Source of the DNA: a virus
Lineage: Duplodnaviria > Heunggongvirae > Uroviricota > Caudoviricetes
Strand: one strand, 5' to 3'
Virus record (IMG/VR): IMGVR_UViG_2706794691_000017
DNA: 5,321 nt
Under the pieces are notes generated by a model. The model searched no databases. It was not told the origin of the DNA and saw nothing but the letters and a program-made list of their open reading frames with translations. Shown piece by piece: positions 1,272 to 5,321 of this stretch (positions within the stretch are counted from its first letter, which is position 1; every line of letters begins with the position of its first letter). The position numbers and the translations under genes are program-made.

Positions 1272-1655
1272 TTAATTAGAGTTATTAACAACGATATCCA
1301 TCTCTAACCGGATATCTAATGCCATTAACATCCCTTCAATTATGCCCTCAGCCTTCTGTAACCTTTTCCCGATATAACCATCAGAGCAGCAATGCTTACC
1401 TGCCAGTGACATGAATGTCATACCGACTACATAATAATCTACTAATAAATCGTGCAAATCGCTGTTGTTCTTTTTCAGACGGGCCATGCACCCGCAAATA
1501 ATCATCGCGTCATCGTCACAACATTGCGGGCGAGATTTTACTTTTGAAGTAATTAATCCCTTAAAACCGGCGGCAATGGACGACCAGGTCACATCTTCAT
1601 GATTATTAGCCGCCCACGCTCCCCAACGCTCAAGAACCATCTGAATATCACGCAT
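1272..1655 (-). CDS. quuD: Late-gene antiterminator Q, phage 82 / QuuD type
   Basis: Translation [26 protein letters not shown]...[16 protein letters not shown]...DIVVNNSN matches my recollection of DLP12 QuuD (127 aa), with Cys-rich putative zinc-binding motifs. ATG at 1655 is preceded by GGAG with 7-nt spacing. The ORF track's 1670 start is an upstream in-frame TTG, which I consider less likely. Confidence 0.85.
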
Positions 1656-1740
1656 CAACTTACTCCACAAAAATCAGACCAGAACGCCAATTACAAGCAA
1701 AAATCAACAAAACAGTATTAGTTGATTGTTATCTCTGACT

Positions 1741-1881
1741 TCATACTCCTGCTCCTGTCAGGGTTTTGGCGTAATTCTTCAGTATTCGGTAATCGGTCAA
1801 AACAGAACCGGGGAAACGATATAAGCGCAGATGCCCCCAGCGGTGGCGAAGAAGTTCTGCCATATAAAACTCAAACATCAT
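1741..1881 (-). CDS. ylcG: Small protein, ylcG-like (46 aa), overlapping the rusA stop
   Basis: Manual translation of the minus strand gives [46 protein letters not shown]. It sits in the rusA-to-Q position that ylcG occupies in DLP12. Below the length cutoff of the supplied ORF track. Start could alternatively be the ATG at 1878 or 1863. Confidence 0.5.
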
Positions 1882-2240
1882 TCATTCCCCATTTCGGTGA
1901 TGGTCAGTTCCAGCCTCCCACCTTTGGTAACAGGCATCTTCACAACGCGGTAATCAACGACCTGAGCATCATCCAGCCAGAAACCTGCTTTGGTGAGTGC
2001 GTCAAAAGCGGCTTTTTGCAGATTATCCAGGTCACGGCGACGGCGATCCGGCATGTGGCACTCAATACGGATTTTCACTGGCATAGCCAGGCCGATATCC
2101 AGCATTGCGTTTTTAATGATTCGGGTGACGTTATCGCGGTATGCCTGCCCTTCTGCGCTGATGTGTGTGCGCCCGCGATTATGGCGGTAATAGCGGTTAT
2201 TGCTCGGAGGCCAGGGTAATGTGATGCTGTAGGTATTCAC
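1878..2240 (-). CDS. rusA: Holliday-junction resolvase RusA (crossover junction endodeoxyribonuclease)
   Basis: 120-aa translation [38 protein letters not shown]...[11 protein letters not shown] matches my recollection of RusA. GTG start overlaps the ybcO stop (GTGA). Confidence 0.9.
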
Positions 2241-2527
2241 GCCTTAATAACCCCCTCTTTCAGCCAGATAACCTGCGTTCTCGCCATACCTTCCAGCGCG
2301 CATTCTTTTGCATACTCAGCATCGACAAAATATGTGCGGCGGTCGATTTCGTCGTGACAGGCAGAACATGCAATGGTGGCAATCAGGTCTGGCGGTTTGA
2401 TACCGGTACCGCACAATCCAGCCAGCCGGATATGTGCCAGTACTGACGTTTCAGGATTGCCATTACATACGCCAGGGATTCTTACCTGGCATTCCCGACC
2501 ACGCGCTGCTTTTCTCAAATCAGCCAT
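2237..2527 (-). CDS. ybcO: YbcO-family protein (DUF1364; Cys-rich putative nuclease/zinc-binding protein of the nin region)
   Basis: 96-aa product [42 protein letters not shown]...[11 protein letters not shown].., starting at the ATG at 2527 with a strong upstream SD (AAGGAGGA). The ORF-track start at 2566 is an upstream in-frame ATG lacking an SD. Start overlaps the ninE stop (ATGGCTGA). Confidence 0.8.
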
Positions 2528-2690
2528 GATTCCTCCTTGCTGCCAGTCGCAACCATTTTTTATCAACCAGGCTAGCGGTATATCCGAGCAGTGTTGGTAT
2601 TTCGGATGGCTTCAGCTCAGGCTTACGCTTACGACGATTTGATACTCTGTAGATGTGCCCGTTCATGACACGAATAAGCGGTGTAGCCAT
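2520..2690 (-). CDS. ninE: NinE-family protein (56 aa)
   Basis: Manual translation [59 protein letters not shown] overlaps the ybcN stop (TAATG) and the stop overlaps the ybcO start. Below the ORF-track length cutoff. Confidence 0.75.
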   Translation of the reverse strand: MATPLIRVMNGHIYRVSNRRKRKPELKPSEIPTLLGYTASLVDKKWLRLAARRNHG

Positions 2691-3145
2691 TACGCCTCCT
2701 GCTTATCGCGCAGCTGCTGGTATTCACAGCTCTGCGGAATTGTCAGGTGGCAGCCGATATTCATCGCCCAGGCTTCGACTTTGCACAGGAAGATGTACAT
2801 CTCGCCGGTTTCCAGCTCTGACGTATGGCGGAGGGATTGGACGGTGGTGACCTCGCCGGACACGACATCTACACGGTCTTTGCTTTCGTAGCCGAGATAG
2901 GTGTGCTTCATCGCGTCTTTGACCCACTCAGGCGTAGCGAAGGTCTTGCCGCGGGCGATGAGATATTCGCTGATCTCCGTGTACCACATGTGGCTGAGCG
3001 CGTTCTGCGACAGGCTGCGCTTCTCGCGCCACGGCTTAACCTGCAGGCGTAAGCATTGCCCGGCATCCAGCAATGGCTGAATCTGCTGGCCGATGGCCGC
3101 GAAGTTACCGCGATGGAGTTTGATGCCGTCTACTGGCAGAGTCAT
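2690..3145 (-). CDS. ybcN: YbcN-family prophage protein (nin-region; reported base-flipping DNA-binding protein in E. coli)
   Basis: 151-aa ORF MTLPVDGIKLHRGNFAAIGQQIQPLLDAGQCLRLQVKPWREKRSLSQNALSHMWYTEISEYL.. matches my recollection of DLP12 YbcN. SD GGGAGG upstream. ATG overlaps the stop of the upstream small ORF (ATGA). Confidence 0.85.
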   Translation of the reverse strand: MTLPVDGIKLHRGNFAAIGQQIQPLLDAGQCLRLQVKPWREKRSLSQNALSHMWYTEISEYLIARGKTFATPEWVKDAMKHTYLGYESKDRVDVVSGEVTTVQSLRHTSELETGEMYIFLCKVEAWAMNIGCHLTIPQSCEYQQLRDKQEA

Positions 3146-3237
3146 ACGGCCTCCCTAACGGAAACCGCAGAATGCAGAAAATCGCAGGTGCATTTCTGCA
3201 TCTGTGACAAGGTGATGAGTTCAGATTGTGGTCGCAT
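3142..3237 (-). CDS. ylcH: Small ORF (31 aa), ylcH-like, translationally coupled to ybcN
   Basis: Manual translation MRPQSELITLSQMQKCTCDFLHSAVSVREAV*. Preceded by an in-frame stop and an AGGGGA SD-like sequence. TGA overlaps the ybcN ATG. Identity as ylcH is from synteny and recollection only. Confidence 0.4.
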   Translation of the reverse strand: MRPQSELITLSQMQKCTCDFLHSAVSVREAV

Positions 3238-3365
3238 TTAAGTCCCCTTAAATGCGCAGAAGTCACCGGAGTTGTTCAGGCTCCGATGAGAGGATTATGG
3301 CGGATTGATTACGATAAATCAAAACTATCTTGAAGCCAAAACAGTGATCTTCGCTTTAAAAACCT

Positions 3366-3373
3366 TGTATACT
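3366..3373 (+). promoter_or_regulatory. Candidate extended -10 element (TG + TATACT) upstream of the AT-rich cassette; no convincing -35
   Basis: Sequence ttgTATACT lies about 37 nt upstream of the ATG at 3410. A TTGAAG at 3330-3335 is too far away (about 32 nt) to serve as its -35. Sequence-gazing only. Confidence 0.25.
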
Positions 3374-3409
3374 TTCACCTAATCACAGCCAGAACTATGG
3401 ATCTAACCA

Positions 3410-3787
3410 ATGACCAACAAAGAAAACAAAGATAAATATATTAACAAGTTCAAGAAAGAGCTTTCAAAATATATACAACCAACTGCTGGAGTGGACATTC
3501 AATTATTTAACTCTAAGGATGGTGGTGGTGTAATTAAAGCCACTTTGAATAGAAGTGGAAAAAGAAAATCATCTATTGCTGGTAATTTTACTAAATTAGG
3601 TGAGGCAATTACCTCGAGTGGGCAGAGGGTTTTTGGTGGTGATCTATCAAATGTGAATTTTTACGGAACAAATACGATTTTTGATGGAGATACAATATTT
3701 TTAATTAAATCACCTGATTCAGAGGAGTGGTCATCACAAAAAGCTTCCAAAGACGTAGAGGGCATCGTATTTGGAGGGAAAAAATGA
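3410..3787 (+). CDS. Hypothetical protein, 125 aa, hydrophilic, Gly/Lys/Ser-rich, no signal peptide or TM segment; unassigned family (cassette gene A)
   Basis: Long uninterrupted ORF in a strongly AT-rich context. Product MTNKENKDKYINKFKKELSKYIQ...GGDLSNVNFYGTNTIFDGDTIFLIKSPDSEEW...GIVFGGKK. Weak or absent SD. I do not recognise the family. Confidence 0.6.
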   Translation: MTNKENKDKYINKFKKELSKYIQPTAGVDIQLFNSKDGGGVIKATLNRSGKRKSSIAGNFTKLGEAITSSGQRVFGGDLSNVNFYGTNTIFDGDTIFLIKSPDSEEWSSQKASKDVEGIVFGGKK

Positions 3788-3869
3788 TTAACATTACTAC
3801 TAAGGATGCACTCAAGTCAGTGGTGAAGTAAGAGATCTAGTAATTCTTCTTGAAACTGATGGAAAAACG

Positions 3870-4211
3870 GTGTCTGATTATTTGCAGCCAATCCCTCCCA
3901 AAAAAGATACACACTGGAGCATGATTTTCATTCCGGTAGCAATTTATATACTACTTAATCTTGTATACATTATTGCTCACCCATTATTTCCTGAAAAATA
4001 TCTAAAAACATCAACATCTATATTTCTATTCATTTCCTTCATATTAAGTGCAATAGTAGCATATTTTGTTTTCCATAAGCATAAATCTGCCACTCTATCC
4101 ATATGCAGCTTAGTGTTCTTAGTGTTAATTGTAGGTGCTAACGTAGGGTTTATCAGTTACAGCGACCTAACACAAAAAGCGACGCAAAAATTAGATAGTT
4201 TGTCTAAATAA
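3870..4211 (+). CDS. Hypothetical small integral membrane protein, 113 aa, about 3 predicted TM helices; unassigned family (cassette gene B)
   Basis: GTG start at 3870 (an internal ATG at 3918 is an alternative). Hydrophobic stretches WSMIFIPVAIYILLNLVYIIA, TSIFLFISFILSAIVAYFVF and LSICSLVFLVLIVGANVGFI are separated by short charged loops (PEKYLK, HKHKSAT). AT-rich codon usage matches gene A. Confidence 0.6.
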   Translation: MSDYLQPIPPKKDTHWSMIFIPVAIYILLNLVYIIAHPLFPEKYLKTSTSIFLFISFILSAIVAYFVFHKHKSATLSICSLVFLVLIVGANVGFISYSDLTQKATQKLDSLSK

Positions 4212-4218
4212 TTATGTT

Positions 4219-4266
4219 GCCATGCGAAGTATGCATGGCTGCATGTCTGCCTTCCATTTAAAATGG
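4219..4266 (+). other. Inverted repeats downstream of cassette gene B (gccatgc..gcatggc stem; palindrome ccatttaaaatgg); possible weak terminator or site
   Basis: 7-bp stem at 4219-4225 / 4233-4239 with 7-nt loop, and a 13-bp palindrome at 4254-4266. No strong U-tract. Confidence 0.2.
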
Positions 4267-4318
4267 GCTAAGACCTATAACCCTAAATATTATTCTTTAT
4301 TATCTTCTTTACCACTTC

Positions 4319-4341
4319 GGTGATGCTGCCAACTTACTGAT
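4319..4341 (+). repeat. IS1 left terminal inverted repeat (IRL)
   Basis: GGTGATGCTGCCAACTTACTGAT, imperfect inverted match to 5064-5086. Confidence 0.85.
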
Positions 4342-4373
4342 TTAGTGTATGATGGTGTTTTTGAGGTGCTCCA

Positions 4374-4577
4374 GTGGCTTCTGTTTCTATCAGCTGTCCC
4401 TCCTGTTCAGCTACTGACGGGGTGGTGCGTAACGGCAAAAGCACTGCCGGACATCAGCGCTATCTCTGCTCTCACTGCCGTAAAACATGGCAACTGCAGT
4501 TCACTTACACCGCTTCTCAACCCGGTACGCACCAGAAAATCATTGATATTGTCAGCGCCAGTGATATAAGACGGTAA
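4374..4577 (+). CDS. insA: IS1 InsA, C-terminally truncated variant (66 aa; canonical InsA is 91 aa)
   Basis: GTG start. [58 protein letters not shown] matches the InsA zinc-finger N-terminus, then diverges (IVSASDIRR*) and stops at the TAA at 4575-4577, upstream of the slippery site. Confidence 0.7.
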
Positions 4578-4585
4578 TTCGCCAT

Positions 4586-5071
4586 TTGGATTGTCCGCTC
4601 CACCCAACAGATTTTACGTCACTTAAAAAACTCAGGCCGCAGTCGGTAACCTCGCGCATACAGCCGGGCAGTGACGTCATCGTCTGCGCGGAAATGGACG
4701 AACAGTGGGGCTATGTCGGGGCTAAATCGCGCCAGCGCTGGCTGTTTTACGCGTATGACAGTCTCCGGAAGACGGTTGTTGCGCACGTATTCGGTGAACG
4801 CACTATGGCGACGCTGGGGCGTCTTATGAGCCTGCTGTCACCCTTTGACGTGGTGATATGGATGACGGATGGCTGGCCGCTGTATGAATCCCGCCTGAAG
4901 GGAAAGCTGCACGTAATCAGCAAGCGATATACGCAGCGAATTGAGCGGCATAACCTGAATCTGAGGCAGCACCTGGCACGGCTGGGACGGAAGTCGCTGT
5001 CGTTCTCAAAATCGGTGGAGCTGCATGACAAAGTCATCGGGCATTATCTGAACATAAAACACTATCAATAA
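4586..5071 (+). CDS. insB: IS1 InsB reading frame (transposase catalytic part); N-terminus differs from canonical
   Basis: From ..[50 protein letters not shown]... to ..HYLNIKHYQ* matches InsB. The first 8 residues (MDCPLHPT) come from the divergent block. Confidence 0.75.
4623..4631 (+). promoter_or_regulatory. IS1 programmed -1 ribosomal frameshift motif (TTAAAAAAC) that normally produces the InsAB' transposase
   Basis: Motif read directly, in the conserved position relative to insB. The upstream insA frame is interrupted by a stop in this copy. Confidence 0.6.
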
Positions 5072-5086
5072 GTTGGAGTCATTACC
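5064..5086 (-). repeat. IS1 right terminal inverted repeat (IRR)
   Basis: Reverse complement GGTAATGACTCCAACTTATTGAT. Confidence 0.85.
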
Positions 5087-5321
5087 GTGCGATGGCATAT
5101 TTTATGTTGTCATTAATGATTTCAATAATATGTGGAAGGTGATGGAATTTCAGCAACAGATCTATTGCCTCTTGTTGCTCTGAATCATTTAAATCGAAAA
5201 ACCAGTCACCACCGCTGGCAAGCCACATATTTCCATCGCCAGTTTCGAATGCATCCAACGCCATCGCTTCGTGGTTGCCTTTAACCGACGTAAACCAGGG
5301 GTGGTTTAGCAGGCGCAGCAC
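5082..5321 (-). pseudogene. Lambda-type Ser/Thr protein phosphatase (metallophosphoesterase, NinI/PPase-like), 3'-truncated at the IS1 junction; 5' end beyond window
   Basis: Translation ..HPWFTSVKGNHEAMALDAFETGDGNMWLASGGDWFFDLNDSEQQEAIDLLLKFHHLPHIIEIINDNIKYAIA aligns with the lambda PPase region FPWFRAVRGNHEQMM...GGGWFFNLDYD...LPLIIELVSKDKKYVI, including the GNHE motif. The ORF then runs into the IS1 right end (junction 5086/5087), where a stop (5082-5084) occurs. The expected C-terminal third is absent. Confidence 0.75.

Follow-up and report, generated by a model that had tools for sequence, protein, structure and literature searches.

A low-GC gene pair of lambdoid prophages, encoding a soluble protein and a predicted three-helix membrane protein, as a candidate conflict module

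Introduction

In phage lambda the prophage encodes the RexA/RexB system, for whose expression the lysogen does not depend on the lytic operons. The cytosolic component of this system is a sensor that gates the membrane effector, a small polytopic protein of the inner membrane. Here we analyse a 5,321-nucleotide stretch of caudoviral DNA (IMG/VR record IMGVR_UViG_2706794691_000017, the whole of which is referred to as the window) that contains a low-GC cassette of two genes, one for a soluble protein (gene 1) and one for a membrane protein (gene 2). In layout and proposed logic the closest analogue of this pair appears to be RexA/RexB. Similar to the lambda system, the pair is found in a prophage and joins a cytosolic protein to a small polytopic inner-membrane protein, RexB (144 amino acids) and the intact gene-2 product (142 amino acids) are alike in length, expression from the lysogen independent of the lytic operons is predicted for the cassette, and we propose that here, too, the soluble protein may gate the membrane protein. 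In contrast, neither sequence nor profile similarity connects the two systems, and the pair does not match the Pfam Rex family. RexB has four helices, whereas gene 2 specifies three helices and a cytosolic N-terminal domain; RexA comprises 279 amino acids and the gene-1 product 125; and the rex genes lie in the immunity region, whereas the pair occupies the slot between the phage genes P and ybcN.

In operon form, the closest counterparts would seem to be the toxin-antitoxin systems GhoS/GhoT (type V) and SdhE/YgfX (type IV; also CptB/CptA), in which a gene for a soluble protein is tightly coupled to a downstream gene for a small membrane protein. As in such membrane-toxin modules, the pair forms an isolated, autonomous two-gene unit, with an overlap between its genes and with homology limited to the pair. 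There is, however, no homology to either system, gene 2, besides being larger, specifies a conserved cytosolic domain, and copies of the pair occur in which gene 1 is broken and gene 2 intact. The lambdoid morons (bor, lom and the DLP12 genes emrE, ybcL and ybcM) share with the cassette a deviant GC content, a position between neighbour or near-neighbour genes, the opposite orientation and, as predicted for the cassette, a putative promoter of their own and a hairpin at the end. The cassette differs from these morons in that it is also present in chromosomal islets of at least three phyla and on a plasmid. Finally, gene 1 and gene 2 are full-length members of phrog_18061 and phrog_16940, respectively; the relatives described here extend outside phages.

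Results and discussion

A wide family of strictly paired genes

The segment that carries the pair is best explained as a horizontally mobile, self-contained two-gene operon of ~0.8-0.9 kilobases (kb) that entered the prophage as a moron-type insertion. Word-indexed searches reached enterobacterial relatives only, whereas exhaustive searching with HMMER and the alignment of gene 1 reached a wide family, which at 50% identity comprises 111 clusters; for 30 clusters E was <=1e-10. Gene-1 relatives are nearly all 120-135 amino acids long and are matched end to end, and many of the ~110 clusters come from outside phages. On the contigs of species genomes the close-family alignment found no relatives, whereas a four-sequence alignment did. 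A partner gene of 125-143 codons follows gene 1 in 18 of the 18 IMG/VR loci that have downstream sequence, in the metagenome contigs (L021-L030, L033 and L034), and in all seven species genomes (Nitrospira, Neptuniibacter, Nitrosomonas, Salinisphaerales, Syntrophaceae and two metagenome-assembled genomes (MAGs) of Pseudomonadota). The two genes overlap by 4 nucleotides throughout, the exception being L022, where they are separated by a 2-nucleotide gap. The partners align with gene 2, sharing an N-terminal motif (K-x-G ... G ... D/A-Y), the sequence W-x-I-I-P that opens the first transmembrane helix (TM1), a basic K/R-x-K loop and the three helices, and both pairing and architecture are retained down to ~20-30% identity. 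No third conserved gene emerged from an all-against-all BLAST of 26 neighbours. The expectation that the two genes would always travel together thus held in every locus with downstream sequence bar one, a single-gene HNH fusion.

This fusion protein, P0104 (447 amino acids; L031 / L032 246-1589), contains a gene-1 domain at residues 7-119, an HNH endonuclease and a C-terminal domain of ~190 residues without assigned identity, and no transmembrane partner is encoded within the 77 nucleotides left on the contig. Effector swaps occur in defence systems, and the fusion may represent one. Separately, gene 1 is extended at its N terminus in one subfamily (243 amino acids; L033 258-1895 and L034 1-918), where it is preceded by a gene for a 545-residue protein with a weak GHKL/HATPase_c match (E = 3e-4), and a Phage_rep_O gene lies near; this locus may represent a variant with three genes.

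Purifying selection acts on both genes, the ratio of nonsynonymous to synonymous substitution rates (dN/dS) being 0.07-0.08 for gene 1 and 0.07-0.19 for gene 2 at dS values of 0.6-2.5. These values bear on the trivial explanation that the two open reading frames (ORFs) are chance frames in AT-rich filler. The ORF list was mechanical, and, although low-GC DNA has fewer chance stop-free stretches than high-GC DNA, frames of 113-125 codons still called for a check. Chance frames would not, however, be expected to combine such dN/dS ratios with a family of this breadth and with pairing over so large a divergence; the explanation is extremely improbable, and we consider it ruled out by the dN/dS values and the deep conservation.

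The two families are new and, beyond their PHROG membership, belong to no described family. Gene 1 matches phrog_18061 (E = 9.3e-85, positions 1-125 of 125) and the gene-2 frame of the window, of 113 codons, matches phrog_16940 (E = 2.2e-74, positions 30-142 of 142), both of which are annotated without function. Searches of Pfam, NCBIfam and PADLOC returned no match for gene 1 and only sub-threshold, generic membrane matches for gene 2, the best in PADLOC-DB v2.0.0 being a generic 4TM effector (E = 0.17). When 86 family members were compared with PADLOC-DB v2.0.0 and Pfam, the nuclease models of the former were matched by the HNH fusion only, and a Pfam domain was likewise found in that one protein. 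Neither product had a significant sequence match in the PDB, and fold searches with the structure models were empty; the gene-1 search, which used a poor model (predicted local distance difference test (pLDDT) score of 58.5), gave no fold match pointing to a biochemical activity. The original prediction had recognised neither protein as a known family, and that judgement stands. Searches with tblastn of the INPHARED isolated phages and the PLSDB plasmids, using the Escherichia coli protein and two distant relatives, were also empty, and no publication naming the accessions or describing the pair was found in the literature on prophage defence, on DLP12/ybcN and from the Brenes/Laub line of work. 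Two candidate relationships of gene 1 were rejected. A sub-threshold match of the family profile to Spc97 (E = 9e-4 over 53 residues) was judged spurious, and a Roadblock/LC7 (MglB-like) fold, to which the sequence pattern had seemed to point, had neither a profile nor a structural match to Robl_LC7.

The products of the two genes

The gene-1 product is a soluble, basic protein (isoelectric point (pI) of 9.5) that lacks a hydrophobic segment. Its equivalent in E. coli A7 is the hypothetical protein WP_000182282.1, also of 125 amino acids. The poor structure model noted above was built on a shallow alignment, before the wide family was known.

Intact gene 2 encodes WP_000608370.1, whose 142 residues comprise an acidic N-terminal domain of ~40 amino acids and three transmembrane helices; on the gene-2 side the pI is 4.5, and the charge is thus complementary to that of the gene-1 protein. 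An AlphaFold2 model (pLDDT of 74) consists of a short N-terminal hairpin and a helix followed by three long helices. Three hydrophobic segments are present in 15 of the 15 gene-2 family members, the TM2-TM3 loop is net positive in all of them (2-4 K/R against 0-1 D/E), and 13 have an N-terminal domain that is acidic overall. The positive charge of the loop implies, by the positive-inside rule, that the N-terminal domain is cytosolic, and the predicted topology is thus that of an inner-membrane protein with its N terminus inside and its C terminus outside. The model, the hydrophobicity and the family-wide topology counts therefore agree with the earlier description of the second ORF as encoding a three-helix membrane protein.

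Conservation of gene 2 is concentrated in the cytosolic domain. Across 15 enterobacterial clusters 30 of the first 36 residues are invariant. Among the E. coli-, Enterobacter- and Klebsiella-type copies the proportion of nonsynonymous differences (pN) in the first 36 codons is 0-0.095, at a synonymous proportion (pS) of 0.50-0.63, and pN in the membrane part is 0.065-0.255.

As a side observation, clustering at 90% identity places the unrelated gene-1 (125 amino acids) and gene-2 (142 and 113 amino acids) proteins in one cluster of 197 members. This mixed cluster may have arisen artificially, from ORFs that were called as fused or read through, an example being a 161-codon ORF that starts inside gene 1.

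Natural lesions and the defective copy in the window

The cassette copy in the window is defective. It had been described as carrying a second ORF of 113 codons, but this ORF (3870-4211) is a remnant of the 142-codon gene, which in E. coli loci of 99.7% identity starts at the ATG corresponding to window position 3784. Alignment to E. coli A7 shows that the window copy is one G short (GATGG to GATG at 3808/3809), and the frame opened at 3784 terminates after 15 codons; the shorter ORF corresponds to residues 30-142, restarted at the GTG at 3870. The 113-codon form is annotated on ~100 contigs of Shigella sonnei, the probable source of the window, and the frameshift is therefore a real mutation of a lineage. 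It deletes the most conserved part of gene 2, the acidic cytosolic domain, and the prophage itself is truncated by IS1 (see below). The pair should thus not be read as an active system in this location. Lesions are also found elsewhere: L007 has the same gene-2 frameshift, L015 a mid-gene frameshift, and L002 and L020 an IS1 inside gene 1. In two of the copies with a broken gene 1, namely L002 and the frameshifted copy in a betaproteobacterial MAG (L041), gene 2 is intact.

It could be argued that the pair is a plain addiction module, in which gene 2 encodes a membrane toxin and gene 1 its antitoxin, and which stabilizes the elements or islets that carry it without any part in phage defence. 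The antitoxin-first order with its ATGA overlap, the discrete and mobile nature of the unit, the location of one copy beside rep on a small mobilisable plasmid, and the toxin-antitoxin-type neighbours of one locus (PIN and a DUF4160/DUF2442 pair) are all consistent with such a role, and pairs of a soluble and a membrane protein are known among addiction modules, GhoS/GhoT and SdhE(CptB)/YgfX(CptA) being established examples. However, L002 and L041 retain the putative toxin after loss of the putative antitoxin, the constraint on gene 2 is strongest in the cytosolic domain rather than in the helices, which suggests regulated gating and not a simple membrane poison, and fusion to an HNH nuclease would be unexpected of an antitoxin domain. 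We therefore regard a plain addiction module as unlikely.

Mobility and genomic contexts

Pairwise blastn comparisons show that nucleotide homology between unrelated contexts is limited to the pair, ~0.8 kb. Thus, the Nitrospira and Neptuniibacter copies are 88% identical over 857 nucleotides with unrelated flanks, and a chromosomal islet located after ligA is 79% identical to a phage contig over 813 nucleotides. The GC content of the pair is at least 4 points under that of its flanks in 10 of 14 loci. The contexts comprise the P-ybcN slot of lambdoid prophages in E. coli and in the Enterobacter-type locus, a different flank in the Klebsiella-type locus, a further phage in which the pair lies upstream of lysis and terminase genes, a mobilisable plasmid of 4.8 kb with the pair between rep and mobC, and chromosomal islets among housekeeping genes, in hosts that span Pseudomonadota, Nitrospirota and Desulfobacterota. 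In the window, no flanking repeats or target duplications were found around the cassette. In a 45-kb phage contig (L027 / L045), direct repeats of ~310 nucleotides (5675-5982 and 6806-7111; 81% identity) enclose the pair (6001-6767), with an inverted copy of 103 nucleotides at 8796-8898; these repeats may be recombination boxes through which cargo is exchanged.

In a small sample of 60 neighbours from 7 genomes most genes were housekeeping, with one SNF2/PDC-M49A-like helicase and further matches to defence models, two each to mad3 and HEC-02A; an Mrr_N protein was seen near one chromosomal pair. This background raises the possibility that the pair is an accessory module outside conflict, such as a small membrane device for stress, transport or signalling with its cytosolic adaptor, or a phage function linked to replication. 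Consistent with this proposal, the pair adjoins replication genes in several elements (P/O-type genes and plasmid rep), its chromosomal neighbours are mainly housekeeping, and the defence databases give no signal. The pair is, however, also found far from any replication gene, and in the prophage it is transcribed against the phage early operon. Its patchy occurrence across phyla, the near-identical cassettes in unrelated flanks and a GC content under that of those flanks also speak against such a role, and repeated pseudogenisation suits selfish or conflict cargo better. An accessory function of this kind thus has a low probability.

The P-ybcN slot and the signals of the cassette

In the window, sliding 200-nucleotide windows give a GC content of 0.295-0.39 over 3301-4300, compared with 0.49-0.61 over the nin-region genes to the left (1801-3300) and 0.49-0.575 on the IS1 side to the right (4301-5000). 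The regional means are 34.3% at 3300-4318 and 53.3% at 1878-3250, and GC at third codon positions is 0.26 and 0.30 in the two cassette ORFs and 0.47-0.76 in ybcO, rusA and ybcN. The original prediction had described a low-GC segment of ~1 kb with two co-oriented ORFs on the strand opposite to the phage early operon, and these values and the ORF list, in which the cassette ORFs are on the plus strand and all the phage genes to their left on the minus strand, confirm both points.

The left 3.1 kb of the window is colinear with DLP12-type lambdoid prophages of E. coli (porin, quuD, ylcG, rusA, ybcO, ninE and ybcN). At least 99% identity to the low-GC segment is found in E. coli A7 and 45 others (46 of 5426 complete genomes), where it lies between ybcN and the replication gene P, and P and the phage genes upstream of it are retained. 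The interval from P to ybcN holds ren/emrE/ybcK in O157:H7, ren and two hypothetical genes in strain 2-101, emrE/ybcK/ybcL/ybcM/ylcH in K-12 and the two-gene pair in A7; it is a variable cargo slot of DLP12-like prophages. The proposal that foreign cargo occupies a variable lambdoid position is thus supported both by the differing content of the slot and by GC content, and in base composition and slot variability the cassette is a moron. Its placement within the nin region was right on the left, where ybcN is the flanking gene and is transcribed divergently from gene 1, but not on the right, where a 30-nucleotide remnant of P is followed by IS1. The end that had been assigned at 4318 marks no more than the IS1 junction. 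We also considered whether the pair could be a holin or lysis cassette, and rejected this; essD and rrrD are located elsewhere in the same prophage type, and no lysozyme gene lies beside the chromosomal, plasmid or E. coli loci.

The promoter and terminator of the cassette are predictions. A candidate -10 hexamer, TATACT, is present at 3368-3373, ~36 nucleotides before the gene-1 ATG, and its position is kept in an alignment of three upstream regions (TATACT, TATACT and TATGAT), but a consensus promoter scan of the window did not list it. Homology to the Klebsiella-type locus (L018) is weak in 3146-3409 and nearly nil upstream of ~3300. The gene-2 ATG at 3784 overlaps the gene-1 stop codon (ATGA, 4 nucleotides), through which gene 2 is predicted to be translationally coupled to gene 1. 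In the hairpin that follows the gene-2 stop, GCCATGC (4219-4225) pairs with GCATGGC (4233-4239), and a three-way alignment of the E. coli, Enterobacter-type and Klebsiella-type cassettes shows that the stem is kept and the loop variable. This hairpin, which has no clear U-tract, is probably the transcript end or a stabiliser of the cassette. A second, terminator-like hairpin just downstream of P converges on the cassette from the opposite strand. The 15-nucleotide stretch that contains the putative -10 element (AACCTTGTATACTTT, 3361-3375) is repeated at 87% identity inside gene 2 (3957-3971), which could be an internal promoter or an AT-rich chance match.

An inner-membrane protein encoded opposite to the early operon, an arrangement that would fit expression in the lysogen from a promoter of its own, could also act in superinfection exclusion. 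In such a scheme the three-helix protein would block entry of the incoming genome, its soluble partner would stabilize or position it, and the cells would survive. HK97 gp15, T4 Imm and P22 SieA are inner-membrane entry blockers, prophage morons often encode exclusion proteins, and the cassette is carried by a second phage as well. The distant members, however, are mostly in non-phage islets or on a plasmid, where it is less obvious what a prophage would gain from exclusion. Exclusion proteins are not known to depend on an obligate partner in the cytosol, neither product resembles a PHROG or Pfam exclusion family, and the HNH fusion better suits the logic of an intracellular effector. Superinfection exclusion thus appears rather improbable.

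A proposed conflict module with a membrane effector

We tentatively favour, at somewhat short of an even chance, the reading that the pair is a self-contained conflict module, of the abortive-infection or toxin-antitoxin-like type, with a membrane effector. This preference reflects the strict pairing and coupling of the genes, their mobility across phyla and replicons, the low relative GC content, the repeated pseudogenisation set against purifying selection on intact copies, and the complementary charges of the gene-1 protein and the cytosolic domain of gene 2. Toxin-antitoxin and defence modules are typically distributed in such a patchy way, independent of context. In the mechanism we propose, the two products would form a complex, with the basic product of gene 1 bound to the acidic N-terminal domain of the gene-2 protein. 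The membrane protein would be the effector, acting by permeabilisation or depolarisation of the membrane or by interference at the inner membrane, and the soluble protein its cognate sensor, regulator or neutraliser, with the complex functioning as an abortive-infection or toxin-antitoxin-type conflict module. In the window this module would have been inactivated, as the 1-nucleotide deletion removes the gene-2 N-terminal domain and the prophage is truncated by IS1. An anti-phage or toxin-immunity function, as originally put forward, is still an inference. A bolder and more doubtful version holds that the pair founds an unrecognised, cross-phylum abortive-infection system in which the gene-1 sensor gates the three-helix effector through the acidic N-terminal domain, the HNH fusion marking gene 1 as the sensor module.

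It should be emphasized, however, that several observations weigh against a conflict module. No family member other than the HNH fusion matches PADLOC v2, and the two accessions and peptide strings are not in the DefensePredictor supplements. The chromosomal neighbours are mainly housekeeping or hypothetical, with few that are defence-like, and guilt by association is therefore weak. The poor gene-1 model yielded no fold match that would back any activity, and the HNH fusion is a single case, from two short contigs that are perhaps from related samples. Finally, the copies with a broken gene 1 and an intact gene 2 (L002 and L041) speak against a toxin that is simple and constitutive and whose antitoxin is essential, unless gene 2 is silenced by the coupling.

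Should the pair prove to be a defence or addiction module, it would add two new protein families without domain assignment to the catalogue and, at ~0.8 kb, would be among the smallest self-contained units of this kind. Many uncharacterised candidates of such paired-operon type exist. The present one is tractable, as intact copies in 46 complete E. coli genomes, the frameshift allele of gene 2 that is fixed in S. sonnei and natural knock-outs of gene 1 are available, and its tiny components would lend themselves to structural and mechanistic studies of the gating of a membrane effector by a cytosolic signal. Even if conflict is not its role, a pair so strictly kept together, with a cytosolic domain of 36 residues so extremely conserved, marks a membrane-associated function worth naming. 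The interest rests in the family rather than in the locus of the window, which is a decayed copy in an IS1-truncated prophage remnant.

The prophage remnant in the window

The features of the window are collected in Table 1. Counterpart annotation supports the identity of the left phage neighbour, the equivalent gene in E. coli A7 being assigned to the YbcN family. In A7 gene P is complete (L001 7042-7755), whereas in the window the rest of P and the genes beyond it, upstream of P in phage transcription order, are gone. Through IS1, the 3' end of P is linked to chromosomal pphB, which lies outside the prophage and is truncated near residue 139; the fragment is 99.6% identical to annotated pphB, a gene present in 5169 of the 5426 E. 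coli genomes. With P reduced to its last nucleotides, followed by IS1 and then by the pphB fragment, the prophage is a remnant truncated by IS1. The IS1 copy lacks a target-site duplication (accacttcg at 4311-4319 on the left, gtgcgatgg at 5087-5095 on the right), and this, together with the P/pphB junction, points to an IS1-mediated rearrangement. The data indicate that an IS1-mediated deletion or inversion took away the replication and immunity regions of the prophage.

Table 1. Features of the 5,321-nucleotide window
Feature	Position	Strand	Evidence
ompC/nmpC-like porin, 360 amino acids	1-1083		uninterrupted ORF
quuD	1272-1670	-	
rusA	1878-2240	-	
ybcO	2237-2566	-	
ninE	between ybcO and ybcN in gene order	-	
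ybcN (NinB/Orf-like, 151 amino acids)	2690-3145	-	Pfam NinB; NCBIfam PRK09741, 2.5e-78
Divergent intergenic region	3146-3409	+	GC drops from ~3290
Gene 1, intact, 125 amino acids	3410-3787	+	ORF; phrog_18061
Gene 2, frameshifted copy of the 142-codon gene	3784-4211	+	alignment to E. coli A7; phrog_16940
Hairpin right after the gene-2 stop	4213-4245	+	fold -16.6 kcal/mol, z = -2.4
Terminator-like hairpin and T-run	4265-4283	-	terminator scan, fold
Gene P, last 30 nucleotides (3' end)	4290-4319	-	coordinate mapping to E. coli A7
IS1, 767 nucleotides	4320-5086	+	Pfam InsA, DDE_Tnp_IS1; alignment with IS1A
pphB fragment (Ser/Thr phosphatase), chromosomal	5087-5321	-	NCBIfam PRK09968 residues 63-139

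Compared with IS1A, the IS1 of the window has three scattered substitutions and a dissimilar block of equal length (~60 nucleotides, 4557-4612) that shortens InsA to 67 amino acids and deletes its helix-turn-helix. The block is present at 95-100% identity in >3000 E. coli records, mainly plasmids, where it is annotated as transposase or hypothetical; the element therefore looks like a natural mosaic variant of IS1. In the immunity region of the A7 prophage, an intact relative of the one in the window (L001 9676-12146), an XRE-family regulator adjoins an ImmA/IrrE metallopeptidase gene, which is followed by a DUF4411 gene. The latter two constitute another candidate accessory pair in A7, which was lost from the window through the IS1 truncation. 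At the other end of the window the porin gene is unbroken, whereas nmpC of the K-12 DLP12 prophage is split by IS5.

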